Virus record (IMG/VR): IMGVR_UViG_2778261389_000005
Coordinates: 1 to 35,777 of that record
Length of the DNA stretch: 35,777 nt
Direction: 5' to 3' (one strand)
DNA from: a virus
Lineage: Duplodnaviria; Heunggongvirae; Uroviricota; Caudoviricetes
The notes beneath the pieces were generated by a model. It searched no databases, had not been told where the DNA came from, and saw nothing but the letters and a program-made list of their open reading frames with translations. Positions 2,838-11,123 of this stretch are shown one piece after another; within the stretch, counting starts at the first letter, position 1; each line of letters opens with the position of its first letter. Position numbers and translations under genes: made by a program.

Positions 2838-5501
2838 TTATGCCTGAGTACGCAGCGCTTCAAGGCGGCGCAGGTCGAAGTCGTTCAGTTCGTCGGTGTA
2901 GTCTTCGGTGATCGGCGCAGGCCAGCAGTTGGTGTCATAAGCCTTAGCCAGGGCGCGCATGGTTTTCTGATATTCCTCTCGGCCAAGCGCCAGCAGTTCC
3001 TCCGAAGCCTCAATGACCGCAACCCAGTGGTAACCCTCGTCTTTGTTAACGAAGATCCAGAAGAACTGATCAAAGTCAGCGACGCTGCAGTACATGCCCG
3101 CGCTGAGGTGGTAATCGCGGTCGATGATTTCCCGGTGCAGCTTGGCGCGCAGGCCTTCCTGCTTAACGCGGCCCATGCTGATCGTTTTCAGGTCAACGCC
3201 GATACGAACGCCGTTTATTTCAACCTCAAGGTCCGGGCGTACACGGACTTCAAGGCCAGTTTCGTCGTCCATACCGAAGTAACTGGTTTCGACTGAACGG
3301 GAAGGGTGGCGCAGTAGTTTTCCGGCCGATTCATGGTTAAGCAGGGCCTGCTGAATTGCCGTGGCCAGCGCCAACTGCTCACTGGACAGGATGGTTTTCC
3401 CGGCAACGCTATCTCGCCATTCCTGCTCGAACTCATCAGCGAAAATGGCATCCGGATTCACCGCGCGGATCGCCGCCTGCAGTTCCTCTTTCTTGCCTGT
3501 GAGCTTCAGTTGCTCGGCCTTTGGCTTATCCGCATTAAATTCGCGGATGAACGCCTTCATGGAGTCGGTAGTGGTAAATGCTCCCTCCGGAACGCCCGGG
3601 AACACCGCGAACTCTTCGTGAAGCTTTTCCGGTTCCAGTGCCATCGTGTGAGACAGGCTACCGAACGTCAGCGCCTCGCTGCTCTCGCGACGGATTGTCT
3701 TGGTCACGTGGCGACCGTGATAGAACATCAGGCTAACGCGCGCATCTTTCAACTGGGTGCTGCTGATCCCGTTCGCTGCGTGGTAAATGTTGTTCGGCAG
3801 GCCTTCATAGCGGCCCGGTTCGAAATAGGCAGGGTATTCCGGCGTGCTGGCGATTTCCTCCGGTGCTTCGGTGGTCATTTCCGGCTGTGAGTCGTTCGCC
3901 AGCTCCGGCGCCACGGCAGCCAGAACCTCAGCCGGGGTCAGGGAAGCTGTTTGCGGATCAGCTGCATCAGAGCTTTCGCCTGGTGGAACCGTGTTACCAG
4001 TTTCTCCTTCCGCCGGGTCAGTCTCTTCCATCTGCACATCGCTGGTGGTCTCCTCTGTAACCGGTGAACGGTCATCTGTTTGTGGTTGTTTTTCGCTCAT
4101 CAGGCCATCAATGGAGAACATGCCGCCGCCGAGGTTAGCGACCTGAGGCTGGCTATCAGTGGAGGTTGCTTCAATGTTTGCTGGGTGAAGCCTTTCATCA
4201 GCAGCGCGCTGGCGCATCAGATCCACAACAGAAAGCGCAGGTTCAGGTCGTTTTTGTTCACCGGCGTTCAACTCGCCATGAAACTCTTCCAACACTTCGT
4301 CAACCTTCTGCCATGCCGCATCTACCATTTCCTGGGTAACTACTTCCTGCTTATGCTCGCTATTGCCATAAATAGGCAGCAACTCAGTCGCAGCATTAAA
4401 TTCAGCCGTCATCGTCTGGTTTACGAACTCCAGATGAGCAACCGGCGTTAGGTGGATATTCTCAGGCGCGATGCGCACCAGGTTGAAGATGGCCGCGCGG
4501 TTAACAGCCAGAACGCCGGGCTGGTTGCGCAGGATTTTGCTCCATGATTTCCATGGTTCTTCTTTGTTCGCGACAATCTCCTTGGCGCGGCGGTGGATGC
4601 TGCCCGGGATTTCCAGATGGTTGAAGTCCATAGGCAGAAGGGCACATGCAATCTCTAAATCGAGAGTGTCAAGGGTATGGTATGCATCAGGTCCACGGTC
4701 AGTGACATAACCGCCGTTGGCATTGGTTCCGGAATCAGTACGCTGAACACTACTGATGTGATTACCGGCAGCCCATTCACGCGCCAGGATGCCACGGTCA
4801 ATGTAATCAGTCGCCGCCCACATTCTGGTGAAACGGAGTACCAGCGCGAGTTCGTGACGCTTGTCCTGGCTGAACACTTTGCGAATGGCATCGGTGTAGC
4901 GCCACAGGTCTTTGGTGTCGTAACCCTTCACTTCCGGGCAGTTCTCAGCAGCTAACAGCAAGTTCTGGACGTAACTGTTATCAGTGTCCATCTCCAGCGC
5001 GCCGATAGCTTCGTACTCTTCGCGGGTTACGTGGTGGCGCAGTTCGTCGGCGGTGAACTGGGAAAGCAGTTGCTTACGAAACGGCATCTGCACTACCGGG
5101 TAGAGGGTTGAGTCGTCGTCGTGTTCGTCCAGCGTGATGCCAGCGGTTTCTGGCAGCGTTGACTCAGTAGTTATGTGACTATCAACGGTCTGAGCCGTTT
5201 TCTCGTCAGAGTTTTCAGCTGTGACTTTTGGCAGCCAGGTGCGGTCATCGTTCTGCAGTTCGTAGCGTTCGCACCAGGTGTAATCCACTGCGCCTTCTTC
5301 CGGCAGGTCGTCATATACCGGGAAATCGGTGCGGATTGGTTTGGCATAATCTTTACCGCGGCCAGTTTCTTCAATTCCGGCTTCTTCCAGTGCCACATCG
5401 AGTTGGAGATTGGCGCGCGCTACACTTTTCGCAGTGAACCAAATCACTGCATCTTTCTTGCCAGACTTCTGACTGGCTTTTATCAGATGGAAAAATTCCA
5501 T
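2838..5501 (-). CDS. RecE-like exodeoxyribonuclease VIII
   Basis: 887 aa; long acidic low-complexity N-terminal region and a C-terminal domain with PD-(D/E)XK-like motifs (RPDLEV, GVDLKT); paired with the annealing protein. Confidence 0.65.
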   Translation of the reverse strand: MEFFHLIKASQKSGKKDAVIWFTAKSVARANLQLDVALEEAGIEETGRGKDYAKPIRTDFPVYDDLPEEGAVDYTWCERYELQNDDRTWLPKVTAENSDEKTAQTVDSHITTESTLPETAGITLDEHDDDSTLYPVVQMPFRKQLLSQFTADELRHHVTREEYEAIGALEMDTDNSYVQNLLLAAENCPEVKGYDTKDLWRYTDAIRKVFSQDKRHELALVLRFTRMWAATDYIDRGILAREWAAGNHISSVQRTDSGTNANGGYVTDRGPDAYHTLDTLDLEIACALLPMDFNHLEIPGSIHRRAKEIVANKEEPWKSWSKILRNQPGVLAVNRAAIFNLVRIAPENIHLTPVAHLEFVNQTMTAEFNAATELLPIYGNSEHKQEVVTQEMVDAAWQKVDEVLEEFHGELNAGEQKRPEPALSVVDLMRQRAADERLHPANIEATSTDSQPQVANLGGGMFSIDGLMSEKQPQTDDRSPVTEETTSDVQMEETDPAEGETGNTVPPGESSDAADPQTASLTPAEVLAAVAPELANDSQPEMTTEAPEEIASTPEYPAYFEPGRYEGLPNNIYHAANGISSTQLKDARVSLMFYHGRHVTKTIRRESSEALTFGSLSHTMALEPEKLHEEFAVFPGVPEGAFTTTDSMKAFIREFNADKPKAEQLKLTGKKEELQAAIRAVNPDAIFADEFEQEWRDSVAGKTILSSEQLALATAIQQALLNHESAGKLLRHPSRSVETSYFGMDDETGLEVRVRPDLEVEINGVRIGVDLKTISMGRVKQEGLRAKLHREIIDRDYHLSAGMYCSVADFDQFFWIFVNKDEGYHWVAVIEASEELLALGREEYQKTMRALAKAYDTNCWPAPITEDYTDELNDFDLRRLEALRTQA

Positions 5502-6413: not shown

Positions 6414-6803
6414 GATGTTCTCCAGTTTTCTGAGTGAACTTCGCTAGTGGCGCCGTGATGCTGATCTTCACAGTTGAGCGTTTTAACTCTGCAGTTCACC
6501 ACCGCGAAGCTCACTCTGTGCTTTGCCCTTGTCGCCAGGCTGGCGGAACGTTTCAAACCTACTGCGCGTTAATCTCACCACCTCATTCCGGTCTTCGTAT
6601 GCCCCGGACGGCTTCTTCGTGGGCGTCCTGCCTAGGTGGTTGTGTTGATGGAGTAAGTAAAACACCGCTTTACCATTAAGTCAAGTAATGCAGATTAAAA
6701 AGGTAAAGCATAGCTGTATGTTGGGCGAAATTTATCCAGATTAGAGATGATTGCATCAACTAAAAGTGTGTATGATGAAAAAAAACATCATTGAGGGTGG
6801 GAT

Positions 6804-6998
6804 ATGGAAAAGTTCTACGTGGGTTACAACGATGTATGTCAGGCGGTAGGTAGAGCGACGCTGAATCTGATATCACATGGAGACGCGCCCACTACTGAGG
6901 CGATCATTTCAATGCTGGAGTCGCTGGGGGATATTGAGCAGAACGATTTTTGGCGACAGGTGTTCAGGTTTGCTGCTGAGGAAGTGCGAAAAGGGTAG
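6804..6998 (+). CDS. Hypothetical small protein, opposite strand to surrounding early genes
   Basis: 64-aa ORF; GAGGGTGGG RBS before ATG; followed by hairpin at 7011-7028. Confidence 0.45.
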   Translation: MEKFYVGYNDVCQAVGRATLNLISHGDAPTTEAIISMLESLGDIEQNDFWRQVFRFAAEEVRKG

Positions 6999-7002
6999 GC
7001 AA

Positions 7003-7028
7003 AAGAAACCCCGGCGCGGTGGCCGGGT
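7003..7028. terminator. Bidirectional rho-independent terminator
   Basis: CCCGGC-GCGGTG-GCCGGG hairpin flanked by A-run upstream and T-rich tract downstream; lies between convergent ORFs. Confidence 0.5.
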
Positions 7029-7034
7029 TGGAGA

Positions 7035-7460
7035 TTATTTTCTAGATGATGTTGGGGACCAAGGTAACGTTATAGTATCTAACACTGTGTTTTTGAACAT
7101 ATTTTCAAAAACTGTTTTTGTACATACATATACATAATTTTCAAAAAACCAAGCATTTTCATTATAAAAATCCTCAGTTACTTCTTCATCGAGGTCACAC
7201 TCAAATGTTAGTGTCAAGGTAGCCTCTGCCTTGAACAATACATCCTCACCATCATCAAAATCTTTTTTATCGCGAGGGAAACCAGTTATCGATGGCTTAA
7301 CTTCAATAAAGAGCCAATTTCCATCTTCATCTTTTTGAGGAACAACGTGATGCTCAGAAAATTTTAAGCTATATTTTCCGCCTTCAGAATTATCACTGTC
7401 GTCGATAAAAAGGGAAGAACCCTCGAGATCAAATCCCTTAAAGCGAATTTTATCAAGCAT
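7035..7460 (-). CDS. Hypothetical acidic protein, third gene of hicAB operon
   Basis: 141 aa from ATG at 7458-7460, overlapping hicB stop by 1 nt (TGATG); ORF-track version starts at TTG 7496; followed by terminator; AT-rich. Confidence 0.45.
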   Translation of the reverse strand: MLDKIRFKGFDLEGSSLFIDDSDNSEGGKYSLKFSEHHVVPQKDEDGNWLFIEVKPSITGFPRDKKDFDDGEDVLFKAEATLTLTFECDLDEEVTEDFYNENAWFFENYVYVCTKTVFENMFKNTVLDTITLPWSPTSSRK

Positions 7461-7933
7461 CAATGTGGCACTCCGTTGTCTACTGAAACTTCCCAATAGG
7501 TCTCTTCTGTACGTCTACGGGATGAGAAGAAAGTAACTTCTCTAACATCCCTCGGTTTTTCAAAGTGGTAGTGAACCTCTTTTTTCCCATTAACTGACTC
7601 ACTGACAGCCTGTTTTACATAATCGTTTAAAGTCATATTCTTAGCTTTAGCAGCTAAATATGCTTTTTTATGCAGGGATTCACCTATCCGGATGTTAAAC
7701 GAACCACTCATTGTCTTATCTGGAGATTTTCCTATCTCTTCACAAGTGGAGAGGTAATCGTCCACGGCCTCCTCAAAGGCTGCACGGAGTTCTGCAACCG
7801 TTGCACCCTCATAAGTGACGAGATCATTTATACATTCGAGTTTTCCATGCATCACCCCATCTTCAAATGAAATGCTGGAGCTACCATAGTAACCTTTGTA
7901 TTTCATCAAGTTATTCATGATCATCAATCTCAT
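7460..7933 (-). CDS. hicB: HicB-family antitoxin
   Basis: Motif MKYKGYYGS...DG..HGKLECINDLVTYEG...EL..AFEEAVDDYL..CEE.G..P.K..SG.FN.R typical of HicB; likely true start at internal Met (7918 or 7906); about 40-aa C-terminal extension. Confidence 0.8.
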   Translation of the reverse strand: MRLMIMNNLMKYKGYYGSSSISFEDGVMHGKLECINDLVTYEGATVAELRAAFEEAVDDYLSTCEEIGKSPDKTMSGSFNIRIGESLHKKAYLAAKAKNMTLNDYVKQAVSESVNGKKEVHYHFEKPRDVREVTFFSSRRRTEETYWEVSVDNGVPH

Positions 7934-8165
7934 CTAACAGCTGTTTAACTTCTTCCAAGACGTACCTTTTGAGGGTGTTTTCAGGATGAGGCTCATGAAA
8001 AATGACCAATCTATCAACACGTTGGTTGTAAAATTTACGGCCAGAACCTCGTTTAGCATTCAAAAGCTTGAAGCCATACTGGTTCATGAGAGTAACGAAC
8101 TCATCCCAAGTAAAATTTTTGGGTAAGCCGTCTAACTTTGACTTTAGCTTTTCCTTTCTTCCCAC
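7911..8165 (-). CDS. hicA: HicA-family toxin (YcfA-like fold), non-canonical
   Basis: 84 aa, GTG start; aligns to HicA pattern (GF.L...RGS..KF....V..HEPHP) but with GSGR in place of the usual GSHH; overlaps hicB. Confidence 0.7.
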   Translation of the reverse strand: MGRKEKLKSKLDGLPKNFTWDEFVTLMNQYGFKLLNAKRGSGRKFYNQRVDRLVIFHEPHPENTLKRYVLEEVKQLLDEIDDHE

Positions 8166-8192
8166 GAAGGATACATCCTCTGTTAAAGGTAG

Positions 8193-8213
8193 TGCAACTG
8201 AAATCTAGTTGCA
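8193..8213. promoter_or_regulatory. Palindrome TGCAACT-N7-AGTTGCA upstream of hicA, candidate operator
   Basis: Perfect 7-bp inverted repeat 28 nt upstream of the hicA start. Confidence 0.35.
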
Positions 8214-8325
8214 AGCTATGCTATCTATAGACAAAATGTTTCATTGTTATATCAGAAGATACCCGATCTGTTTCACCTTCAACTACTATAATTTGTTATA
8301 AGCTATCAACCGGTGGAACTGCGAA

Positions 8326-8424
8326 TTAGCCGCTGGGTGTTGCGTATCCATCGATGATAAACCATGCCATAAACCCCATAGCTACGATGAACACCAAGAT
8401 CGGAAACACTATACCAATTCTCAT
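8326..8424 (-). CDS. Small hydrophobic peptide (32 aa), possible membrane peptide
   Basis: Hand-translated MRIGIVFPILVFIVAMGFMAWFIIDGYATPSG; AGGGA RBS-like sequence upstream; single predicted transmembrane helix. Confidence 0.3.
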   Translation of the reverse strand: MRIGIVFPILVFIVAMGFMAWFIIDGYATPSG

Positions 8425-8469
8425 GATTTTATCCCTGTCTACCCATGCTTCCTGGGCACCAGCGGCTCG

Positions 8470-8862
8470 TTACTCGGCATCGCCCTTAATCCGCCGCCCC
8501 ATATATTTGGCGTACAGATCGTCGAGTTCCTTCAGGCGCAGTGATACCGCCTTAAGAACTCCACCCTGATCCTCTTCGGGGAGTTGACGGAAAAGGCGTA
8601 AAAGCTCTTGCTCATTACTTTTTAATCCATCATTGGGCCCTATATCCTGCCCCAAAACCCAGGCTAAATTCACACCAAGCGCATCAGCTAGCTTAAGTGC
8701 GGAGTTTTTCCCAATAGTTCCCCTTACAAACCAGTTGTTAACCGACTGGGATGTTACGCCACAAATTCTGGCCAGATCTGCTTTTGAGAGATGTTTACTA
8801 TTCGTGATCTCATTGAGTCGTCTGACCTGTGGGTTATCTGATTCGTGTGTATTTTTTCTCAT
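8470..8862 (-). CDS. DicA-like HTH (XRE) repressor, paralog 2
   Basis: N-terminal HTH (LSKADLARICGVTSQSVNNW) and C-terminal LRLFRQLPEEDQ...LRLKELDDLYAKYM; about half identical to the upstream gene; alternative GTG start at 8877. Confidence 0.7.
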   Translation of the reverse strand: MRKNTHESDNPQVRRLNEITNSKHLSKADLARICGVTSQSVNNWFVRGTIGKNSALKLADALGVNLAWVLGQDIGPNDGLKSNEQELLRLFRQLPEEDQGGVLKAVSLRLKELDDLYAKYMGRRIKGDAE

Positions 8863-8881
8863 GTACAAGAGTATCACTTAG

Positions 8882-9265
8882 CTAATCAGCATCGCCCCTG
8901 ATTCTGCGATTCATGTACTTGGCATATAGTTCATCGAGTTCCTTCAGACGCAGGGAGAAGATCCTTATCATATTCTGCTGTTCTTCTTCCGGTAACTGTC
9001 TGTAGAGCTCCAGAATACGTTGTTCATCAGGCTTAAGACCATCCTTCTCTCCAACATCCTCACCAAGTAGCCAGGGGACGGACACCCCTGCAGCGTCAGC
9101 AACCGCTAATGCAGAACTTTTGCTGATTCTTCCTGTTTTGAACCAACTGGAAACAGCTTGCTTACTGACGCCAGCAACCCTGGCCATCTCTGTTTTAGAG
9201 AAACCTTTCCTGTTCAGTTCTGTAAGCCTGGAAATCAGCTCATTTGTCATTGTTTTTTCGCTCAT
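8882..9265 (-). CDS. DicA-like HTH (XRE) repressor, paralog 1, probable CI analogue
   Basis: 127 aa; HTH plus LPEEEQ C-terminal module resembling DicA; divergent from cro-like gene across operator region. Confidence 0.75.
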   Translation of the reverse strand: MSEKTMTNELISRLTELNRKGFSKTEMARVAGVSKQAVSSWFKTGRISKSSALAVADAAGVSVPWLLGEDVGEKDGLKPDEQRILELYRQLPEEEQQNMIRIFSLRLKELDELYAKYMNRRIRGDAD

Positions 9266-9363
9266 TTCATTAGTGTAAATGATCGCTTTACTGTCAGGTA
9301 GGCATTCATGGTTTGACTTTTATAGTAAAATGATGCTTTACTTTTGCCATCTAAGGAGGTCCT
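9266..9363. promoter_or_regulatory. Immunity-region divergent promoter/operator with two related palindromic sites
   Basis: GTAAA-TGATCGC-TTTAC at 9275-9291 and GTAAA-ATGATGC-TTTAC at 9325-9341; TTGACT -35-like hexamer at 9313-9318. Confidence 0.5.
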
Positions 9364-9588
9364 ATGACTGGTATTGAGAAAGCTATTCAAAAGTTCGGCA
9401 CAGGTGCGGCACTCGGAAGAGCGCTTGGATTTTCAAAAATGACAATTTCCAACTGGAAAAAAACTGGCATTCCGCCCGATCACATTCTCTCTGTTTTTGA
9501 GCTTACGGGGGTCACACCGCATGAGTTGCGGCCTGACTTATATCCAAATCCAACCGATGCCTTACCAGTGCAAGAAACGAGGACGTAA
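9364..9588 (+). CDS. Cro/YdaS-like HTH regulator
   Basis: 74 aa; HTH and GVTPHELRPDLYP segment resembling Rac prophage YdaS; AGGAGG RBS. Confidence 0.7.
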   Translation: MTGIEKAIQKFGTGAALGRALGFSKMTISNWKKTGIPPDHILSVFELTGVTPHELRPDLYPNPTDALPVQETRT

Positions 9589-9590
9589 AC

Positions 9591-10130
9591 GTGCAATCAC
9601 TATCACTTCATCAAAATAGCGGATATCAACCGGCTGCGATGATAAATCGCAATCAACCTGTCTCGGTAGATAAACATGACCAGATCCGCGATGCCGTTCG
9701 TGCGTGGGCGGGTGTAGATGGTCAGGATGTCGTTTCTGCTCTGATCATCGAAGAGTACCAGGCTCAAGGGGGAGACGAGATCACTTTCCCTGATGACCTC
9801 AGCCGACAGCGTCAGAAGCTTTTCCGCTTCCTGGATAACCATTTCAACAGCGAACGGTACCGTGAGAACGTTCGCCAGCTGACTCCGGCAATCCTGGCGG
9901 TCCTGCCGATTGAATACCGCAACCGTCTGCTACCAGAAGACAACGTTATGGCCCGCCTGGCTCGGCTGGAGAAAGAAACCAGCGAAGCGAAGATTGCCGT
10001 CGCAATGGATGCGCCACGCCATCAAAAGCTGAAAGAGTTGAGCGAGGGGATCGTGGAGATGTATCGCGTTGACCCTGGGTTAACCGGTCCACTGATGGAG
10101 ATGGTGCAGATGATGCTGGGGGCTATATGA
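9591..10130 (+). CDS. YdaT-like protein (cII-position regulator/toxin-like)
   Basis: 179 aa; LTPAILAVLPIEYRNRLL resembles Rac YdaT; immediately follows the cro-like gene. Confidence 0.6.
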   Translation: MQSLSLHQNSGYQPAAMINRNQPVSVDKHDQIRDAVRAWAGVDGQDVVSALIIEEYQAQGGDEITFPDDLSRQRQKLFRFLDNHFNSERYRENVRQLTPAILAVLPIEYRNRLLPEDNVMARLARLEKETSEAKIAVAMDAPRHQKLKELSEGIVEMYRVDPGLTGPLMEMVQMMLGAI

Positions 10131-10214
10131 CCGGTTCAAAAATGGCGAAAGCCGCGGTGCGCGAACACCAACGGCTTTCAGGTGCAAAAACAGTGCGTAA
10201 TTGCGGAGAACAGT

Positions 10215-11123
10215 ATGTCAAACACCGCTGAAATAATCAATTTCCCAAATAAAACCGAACAACCGGGAGGTCGTATGGCCGACCTGTCGAACGGGTATAC
10301 CAAGGTCGCTAACGAGATCCAACAGCTTAAGCCTCGCCTGAGACTGTCAGGCCGGGAATGGCAATGTTTTGAGGCGGTGATCTGGCTTACCTACGGCTGG
10401 AACAAGAAACAGGACCGCGTGACAAATACGGTTATTGCCGAGCTTACGGGCCTGAGCGATACGCATGTATCGGACGCGCTTAAGTCTCTCGCAGAACGCA
10501 AAATCATCTTTTCACAGAAGCAGGGCATGATGAAAATCGTCGGTGTAAACACTGACCTTTCAGCATGGATTTTAGACAAACCGGAAACGGGAAGAAAATT
10601 CCCGAAAACGGGAAAATCCTTCCCGAAATCAGGAATAACCTTCCCGAAAACGGTAGACACCCAATACAAAAACAAGAACAGTATTAAAAGATCTTCGTCC
10701 GAGAATTCTGACGAATCCTCTGACGCACGTCTGAAGAAATTTTTATCAACTCATCCTGAAGCTGCGGTCTACACACCATCCGGTGCGAAGTGGGGCTCTG
10801 CTGAAGACCTCGAGACAGCTAAGTGGATTTCCTCCAGGGTGAAGCTGATTAACCCAACCTGCAAAGCCCCGGACATGACCTCCTGGTCTAACACTGTTCG
10901 CCTGATGCGCCAGATAGACAACCGGTCGCACCAGGACATCTGCGCGCTGTATGACTGGGCTAGCAAACACCACTTCTGGCAGACCAACATCCTGAGTCCC
11001 GAAAGCCTGCGTAAGCAGTGGGACAAGCTGACAATGCAGCGTAACGCCGGAGGTGAGCAGCGCGCTGTCAAGCCAGATCTGGACTTCAACAACACTGACT
11101 GGGCCTATGGGGTGATCCGATGA
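10215..11123 (+). CDS. O: Replication initiator protein, lambda O-like
   Basis: N-terminus MSNTAEIINFP...ADLSNGY...LTYGWNK parallels lambda O; iteron-encoded PKTGKSFPKSG segment; ORF-track start 10182 is upstream. Confidence 0.8.
   Translation: MSNTAEIINFPNKTEQPGGRMADLSNGYTKVANEIQQLKPRLRLSGREWQCFEAVIWLTYGWNKKQDRVTNTVIAELTGLSDTHVSDALKSLAERKIIFSQKQGMMKIVGVNTDLSAWILDKPETGRKFPKTGKSFPKSGITFPKTVDTQYKNKNSIKRSSSENSDESSDARLKKFLSTHPEAAVYTPSGAKWGSAEDLETAKWISSRVKLINPTCKAPDMTSWSNTVRLMRQIDNRSHQDICALYDWASKHHFWQTNILSPESLRKQWDKLTMQRNAGGEQRAVKPDLDFNNTDWAYGVIR
10578..10700. repeat. Putative replication origin: four about 20-bp iterons plus AT-rich tract inside O gene
   Basis: Repeats CCGGAAACGGGAAG, TCCCGAAAACGGGAAA, TCCCGAAATCAGGAAT, TCCCGAAAACGGTAGA at 21-bp period, each with internal dyad symmetry, then A-rich sequence. 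Confidence 0.6.

Follow-up and report, generated by a model that had tools for sequence, protein, structure and literature searches.

Does a reading frame of only 32 codons, placed between hicA and the repressor genes of a prophage, encode a protein, and if so, of which kind? The frame lies in the window, i.e., the whole analyzed stretch of 35,777 nt from a Caudoviricetes virus (IMG/VR record IMGVR_UViG_2778261389_000005). A preliminary description had proposed an unannotated hydrophobic peptide that is reminiscent of type I toxins or small membrane regulators. The 32-aa frame was present at 8326-8424 and is read from the minus strand, with the ATG at 8424..8422 and the stop codon TAA at 8328..8326. 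Translation of 8424..8326 yielded MRIGIVFPILVFIVAMGFMAWFIIDGYATPSG, identical to the peptide given in that description. The placement between hicA and a tandem of HTH repressor genes was confirmed as well. The following features define the locus:

8882..9265, minus strand: rep1, repressor of 127 aa, paralogue of rep2 and first gene of the leftward lysogenic operon (Pfam HTH_3, Phage_CI_repr)
8470..8862, minus strand: rep2, repressor of 130 aa with a DicA/CI-like HTH, directly upstream of the yoaK-like ORF (Pfam HTH_3, Phage_CI_repr; weak NCBIfam DicA match)
8432..8436, minus strand: Shine-Dalgarno-like AGGGA, 7 nt before the ATG (sequence and anti-SD duplex energy)
8326..8424, minus strand: yoaK-like CDS, 32 codons plus TAA (ORF list, NCBIfam NF033821 match, RefSeq WP_024191667.1)
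7911..8165, minus strand: hicA toxin gene, variable cargo downstream of the yoaK-like ORF (Pfam HicA_toxin)
7460..7933, minus strand: hicB antitoxin gene (Pfam HicB)
7035..7460, minus strand: 141-aa ORF after hicB, labelled 'HicC chaperone' in PV340539 (phrog_19522, function unknown)

On the minus strand, rep1 and rep2 are thus followed by the yoaK-like ORF, a gap of 160 nt, hicA, hicB, the 141-aa ORF and a terminator-like site. rep1 is divergent from a YdaS/Cro-like gene at 9364..9588. The rep1/rep2 pair is also divergent from a YdaT-like gene; the same pair is found in phage mEp237, and some related prophages (L016, L018) possess only one of the two repressors. The 141-aa ORF encodes an acidic protein, and PV340539, from which its label derives, is a 2025 record of mEp234. 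For this ORF (7035..7460), no Pfam or NCBIfam family match was obtained, and the only PHROGs match was phrog_19522. Literature searches on HicC with HicA and HicB, and on mEp234 with HicA, found no paper. The start of hicA is called inconsistently: a GTG giving 84 aa is used in the phage records and in most assemblies, and a 58-aa 'hypothetical protein' is called in the E. coli chromosome PCP06171 (3512-3688 of that locus, L001), where the hicB call is also shorter.

A 32-codon ORF is by itself weak evidence for a gene; the 4 kb around the yoaK-like ORF (6500-10500) are overlapped by 70 ORFs of 20 aa or more. It is the homology and the conserved reading frame that raise this ORF above chance. 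The RBS-like sequence mentioned in the preliminary description was seen as AGGGA 7 nt before the ATG, and its duplex with the anti-SD sequence was predicted at -4.9 kcal/mol. The strength of this Shine-Dalgarno sequence is modest, given that 17% of 20-mers drawn at random from the window do as well. Among the 54 distinct 20-mers upstream of homologous ORFs, 69% reached -4 kcal/mol or better, as compared to 24% of the background.

In hydrophobicity, the peptide ranks first among the window's 79 ATG-ORFs of 28-40 aa; its Kyte-Doolittle mean over 19 residues peaks at 2.64 (residues 6-24). AlphaFold2, run from the single sequence, returned one helix spanning residues 3-28 (mean pLDDT 87). Both predictions agree with the single transmembrane helix that had been proposed. 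The peptide consists of an N-terminal Met-Arg, the hydrophobic helix and a conserved C-terminal G-Y-A-x-P tail, and by the positive-inside rule its topology would be N-in/C-out. In an alignment of six sequences, it carries Asp at position 25, where the other five have Gly, and it also carries M16, G17 and M19. Given these four residues, the window peptide could have diverged functionally.

The identity of the peptide was revealed by the NCBIfam model NF033821, 'YoaK family small membrane protein', which matched with 54.9 bits against a cut-off of 32 (E 4.9e-15) and aligned peptide residues 1-31 to profile positions 1-31 of 32. YoaK is known as a 32-aa small inner-membrane protein of Enterobacteriaceae, and in a scan of one genome per species the family was almost confined to Enterobacteriaceae. 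The precomputed Pfam label on the same gene was PF28021:YoaK; a search of the local Pfam copy with the peptide gave no match, and neither did a PHROGs search. In a representative protein library, 13 matches at E<1e-3 were found, all of them YoaK-like and many with mis-called extensions. A sequence search of the PDB with the family profile found no solved structure containing a YoaK-like chain. Chromosomally tagged YoaK of E. coli K-12 was detectable in stationary phase and was termed uncharacterised (bioRxiv 10.1101/511675). In RseP cleavage assays, tagged forms of K-12 YoaK were inconsistent RseP substrates at best.

Positions 7400-9700 of the window are 100% identical to the E. coli chromosome PCP06171, where PGAP annotates the identical ORF as WP_024191667.1 of the YoaK family; five other complete E. 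coli genomes carrying the identical ORF have the same annotation. The records of phages mEp234, HK106 and mEp506 contain the identical ORF between cI and hicA and give it no CDS feature. The earlier term 'unannotated' is thus correct for these three phage records and incorrect for the RefSeq E. coli genomes. Genes of this kind are overlooked by older ORF callers. The window ORF is almost certainly a real gene of the YoaK family. Gene and family are already catalogued, and the gene is neither a novel element nor a toxin. Of the two classes suggested previously, small membrane regulator is the most plausible one; the family (NF033821) is not a new one.

Conservation of the frame was analyzed at the level of DNA. 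A pattern scan of viral contigs yielded 52 loci with full-length homologues, which encode 27 distinct peptides and all start with ATG. These homologues occur in at least eight unrelated upstream contexts, each with an SD-like motif. Among 48 distinct DNA sequences of the mobile clade (described below), the length was constant at 31-32 codons. Pooled pS and pN of these 48 sequences were 0.70 and 0.11, respectively (pN/pS of 0.155), and the entropies at codon positions 1, 2 and 3 were 0.37, 0.20 and 1.34. For 34 sequences of the chromosomal clade, pN/pS was 0.068. An alignment of six sequences, including YoaK of E. coli, contained 16 invariant columns (M1 R2 G4 I5 F7 P8 F12 I13 A15 F18 W21 F22 G26 Y27 A28 P30). 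Loss of the frame in homologous regions, named in the preliminary description as an argument against the gene, was looked for; frame, ATG and length were kept in all 48 distinct homologous DNAs. Judged by these substitution patterns, the yoaK-like ORF is a true coding gene under purifying selection.

How does the window gene relate to the yoaK of the E. coli chromosome? Two clades were distinguished. First, the chromosomal clade has DgcP upstream and YeaQ downstream and is marked by the motif ...IFIT/SAVVFLAWFF.GGYAAPGA. Second, the mobile or paralogue clade, with the motif ...AFP..VFIVAVAFLAWFI..GGYATPG, comprises the window gene and its viral counterparts, together with copies in Kosakonia, Scandinavium, Phytobacter, Pluralibacter and Klebsiella plasmids; its members outside viruses occupy various other places. 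The window peptide is 73-80% identical to members of this second clade and 59-63% identical to E. coli YoaK. Like the window peptide, K-12 YoaK has 32 aa and one hydrophobic helix, matches the same NF033821 model and shares the 16 invariant residues; it differs in that the two genes have a pS of 0.87, i.e., synonymous sites are near saturation. This saturation explains why a blastn search with 171 bases did not reach chromosomal yoaK. The genomic settings differ as well: chromosomal yoaK is flanked by dgcP and yoaJ/yeaQ, whereas the window gene is located in a prophage immunity region, between a repressor gene and hicA, and the gene order dgcP-yoaK-(yoaJ)/yeaQ was not found around it. The window gene is, therefore, a paralogue and not an orthologue of the chromosomal yoaK of the dgcP-yoaK-yoaJ locus. 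Chromosomal yoaK was present in 5417 and the prophage copy in 6 of 5426 complete E. coli genomes, from which it follows that lysogens carry both copies.

One group of apparent phage-borne copies was rejected. Proviruses L073-L100 of IMG/VR (about 38 kb) are P2-like, with integrase and C/Cox-like genes, and their called boundary lies exactly at the stop codon of a dgcP-linked host yoaK. The yoaK of these records is host DNA included by a boundary artefact, not a phage gene, and the records were excluded from the viral loci. In chromosomes of Kosakonia and Enterobacter (L101, L107, L113, L114), a conserved trio was observed, composed of a 77-aa ORF of conserved sequence, a yoaK-like gene of the second clade and a gene for a 310-aa membrane protein. 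In some of these genomes, an ORF judged by eye to be EAL-domain-like lies about 1 kb upstream, and canonical yoaK likewise sits after a diguanylate cyclase gene, dgcP. A link between the yoaK family and c-di-GMP enzymes is possible.

Next to its family, the gene is characterized by its position. In 38 of the 52 viral-contig loci, a repressor gene was found directly upstream on the same strand, a fraction that overstates the number of independent observations since many of the loci are near-identical prophages. Safer measures of independence are the clusters of repressors and cargo. The upstream repressors comprised 22 DicA-like proteins of about 130-170 aa in 3 sequence clusters and 16 HTH+S24 proteins of the CI/LexA-like type in 6 clusters, the S24/CI-like assignment having been checked with Pfam on four representatives. 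The ORFs downstream formed 17 clusters, including HicAB, HigB, an AAA_31 ParA-like ATPase, an SDH-type protease, NYN and M78. In 30 loci, repressor and yoaK-like gene are 12-51 nt apart; in the other 8, the distance is 118-172 nt, and these longer gaps contain a further tiny hydrophobic ORF or the fossil of a repressor. In 21 viral loci, a yoaK-like ORF begins 16-17 nt after a rep2 homologue. In the Klebsiella phage ST974-OXA48phi18.2 (L006), a rep2 homologue is followed after 17 nt by the yoaK-like ORF, and hicAB is absent. The remaining 14 loci lack an adjacent repressor: 13 belong to another element type, in which small hydrophobic ORFs and cargo such as HigBA, NYN or M78 again adjoin the gene, and the last (L063) is a copy linked to dgcP on a chromosome. 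A literature search did not find this repressor-linked placement of yoaK-like genes in prophages, and the yoaK-like ORF is not a subject of the papers that mention mEp234, HK106 or mEp506. The repeated position behind prophage repressors is the sole unusual feature of the gene.

In ST974-OXA48phi18.2, the yoaK-like ORF (2980-3099) is annotated from an upstream start codon as a 39-aa 'CI transcriptional regulator', and the actual repressor carries the label 'putative repressor Cro'; both labels look wrong. Further tiny hydrophobic ORFs were seen beside yoaK-like genes behind repressors (MREYLIVGVVTLLSVVAIVLMVA, MKESSRFALIVIALLLCVLFVVQAIVLLVK, MSDLVIPILITLLIIGLVGIVLRLDKIFFKRRSGRDDFE), about 60-130 nt upstream of the yoaK-like gene in L022-L024, L044, L048 and L051, and also in L060/L061 and in L006 (3207-3326, plus strand). 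These may be additional unannotated micropeptide genes.

The junction between repressor and yoaK-like gene bears traces of earlier arrangements. In the window, such a trace lies between the rep2 stop and the yoaK-like start:

8439..8454, minus strand: fossil of an S24-type cI 3' end, CAGGAAGCATGGGTAG (cf. ...YRKHG-stop; comparison with L028, L068, L027, L059)

In these four loci, an S24 repressor gene actually ends with this sequence. In mEp234 (about 4020-4110 of locus L002), the phage's own cI is followed by a fossil of the rep2 end, MGRRIKGDAE-stop, and then by the same S24 fossil. Repressor fossils were also observed downstream of yoaK-like ORFs (L027, L059, L060, L068, L069, L072). Across E. 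coli prophages and mEp234/HK106, the 100% identical yoaK-hicABC block is preceded by four or more distinct sets of repressors. The fossils record repeated swaps of the immunity module, and the junction is clearly a recombination hotspot.

Expression of the gene was considered from its surroundings. The ATG follows the rep2 stop by 45 nt; in most homologues, the distance to the upstream stop is 12-17 nt. Two sites are relevant to the transcription of the region:

8193..8213, no strand assigned: perfect palindrome TGCAACT-N7-AGTTGCA, located within the 160-nt gap and about 30 nt ahead of hicA (repeat search)
7010..7027, minus strand: Timm-like site, the only terminator-like site on this strand between the start of the repressor operon and the end of the cargo (terminator scan)

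The scan of the minus strand detected no terminator-like site between 9265 and 7027, and the equivalent of the 7010..7027 site is annotated as Timm in EF120460. A promoter scan of the minus strand from 6900 to 9500 flagged no promoter-like site; this simple scan flagged no minus-strand promoter at all and, hence, does not prove that promoters are absent. The palindrome suggests a candidate operator for HicB and, with it, a separate control region for hicAB. The yoaK-like ORF is probably expressed from the repressor operon, as far as the arrangement of genes and signals can tell; short gaps and the lack of predicted signals between the genes are the sole basis for proposing co-transcription with the repressors.

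A comparable arrangement is found in phage lambda, where rexAB lies behind cI and is expressed in lysogens; RexB, with about 144 aa, is a multi-pass protein and acts together with RexA. With respect to the repressor, the yoaK-like gene is placed and oriented like rexA-rexB in the cI-rexA-rexB order, ahead of a Timm-like terminator, and because of this position it is expected to be active in the prophage state. RexB differs in that there is no sequence similarity, and in that the yoaK-like product is a 32-aa single helix without a fixed partner gene. In comparable size, a single transmembrane helix and sORFs that were missed by pipelines, the peptide resembles AcrZ, MgrB, MgtS, SgrT and CydX, but there is no homology to them. 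These five proteins act by binding larger membrane proteins.

Taken together, the reading favored here, with somewhat better than even confidence, is that of a mobile prophage paralogue of YoaK, a small membrane protein made from the repressor transcript in lysogens and acting on a membrane partner of the host. As a distal cistron, the gene would share the lysogenic transcript of the repressors, and translation from its own modest Shine-Dalgarno sequence would provide a continuous low level of peptide in lysogens. There, the helix might bind a larger inner-membrane protein of the host, plausibly the partner of the host's own YoaK. The likely benefit would be an effect of the lysogenic-conversion or superinfection-exclusion type. 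By analogy with the systems named above, a lysogen-specific role through partner binding or exclusion is suggested only tentatively.

Among the alternatives, a function tied to the downstream cargo fares best, and it is still improbable. Here, the peptide would serve any cargo located behind it as a common membrane partner or effector, as RexB does for RexA, with the cargo sensing infection and the peptide acting in the membrane. The consistent location between the repressor and a slot of variable, defence-like cargo, i.e., the position of rexAB, is in line with this idea. However, HicAB and HigB are self-contained and not known to need a membrane partner, and hicA seems to be controlled separately, from a region that contains the palindrome. 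Moreover, some loci have no same-strand ORF of at least 45 aa starting within 400 nt downstream, or have genes on the opposite strand there, and chromosomal members of the family occur in unrelated contexts. A generic membrane effector for variable cargo is, thus, unlikely.

The type I toxin reading of the preliminary description, in which the peptide would depolarise the membrane and an antisense or overlapping small RNA would restrain its translation, is very improbable. The peptide is small, very hydrophobic and single-helical, features that are not specific to type I toxins, and it adjoins another toxin-antitoxin system. In addition, a lone TATAAT on the plus strand (about 8286-8291) could in principle drive an antisense RNA. 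On the other hand, the only family matched is YoaK, and no known toxin family was matched in NCBIfam, Pfam or PHROGs. The chromosomal homologue is a core gene (5417/5426 E. coli genomes) whose tagged product is readily detected in K-12. The start lies only 45 nt past the preceding stop (12-17 nt for most homologues), so that a long structured leader is lacking, and the downstream flank that an antisense RNA would need is not conserved among homologues. An Rfam search of 6900-9500 at E<=1 gave no match. On the plus strand, the scan showed no promoter-like site between 7641 and 8943, and neither a promoter-like nor a terminator-like site near 8200-8450. The peptide shares with Hok/Gef, Ldr, Ibs, ShoB and TisB that these are small hydrophobic membrane peptides; it differs from them by the absence of a match to these families, of an Rfam antitoxin match and of its own promoter and long leader. 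A type I toxin is, accordingly, not supported. As to the TATAAT sequence itself, it is a perfect hexamer without a recognisable -35 element and would be read antisense through the yoaK-like ORF; other yoaK-like loci do not conserve it.

It is equally improbable that the peptide is a dedicated fourth component or regulator of a HicA-HicB-'HicC' module. The yoaK-like ORF and hicABC do move as one 100% identical block in E. coli prophages, mEp234, HK106 and mEp506, but hicB was found downstream of a yoaK-like ORF in only one of the 52 viral loci (L021, the same module as in the window), and the other loci contain different cargo. Membership in the HicABC module was ruled out by this co-occurrence.

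Finally, there is hardly a chance that the ORF is incidental, the stretch being kept as a DNA boundary sequence for module swapping or as a short upstream frame for translational coupling: repressor 3' end fossils on both sides of the ORF in many loci and boundary sequences annotated in the mEp234 immunity-region record speak for it, but conservation is at the protein level (pS of 0.70 versus pN of 0.11, third positions nearly saturated, 16 invariant residues in six clade representatives) and DNA so divergent is a poor substrate for homologous recombination, so that a 'linker' conserved as DNA was ruled out by the pN/pS of 0.155.

Returning to the prophage YoaK paralogue and its proposed expression in lysogens, the modest added value lies in the context: a paralogue of a host micropeptide is placed behind varied repressors at a recombination hotspot with defence and toxin-antitoxin cargo. 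A conserved sORF that PGAP now annotates is still lacking from phage records and from PHROGs. As a speculation with rather low odds, YoaK-like micropeptides might be a widespread, overlooked class of lysogen-expressed prophage products in Enterobacteriaceae, absent from most phage annotations and encoded as the first cistron after unrelated repressors and ahead of swappable defence or toxin-antitoxin cargo, with the phage copy mimicking host YoaK or competing with it at an inner-membrane partner. As outcomes of such mimicry, the entry of superinfecting DNA might be blocked, or a membrane process of the host might be rewired. If true, this mimicry would provide a handle on the long-unknown function of YoaK itself.
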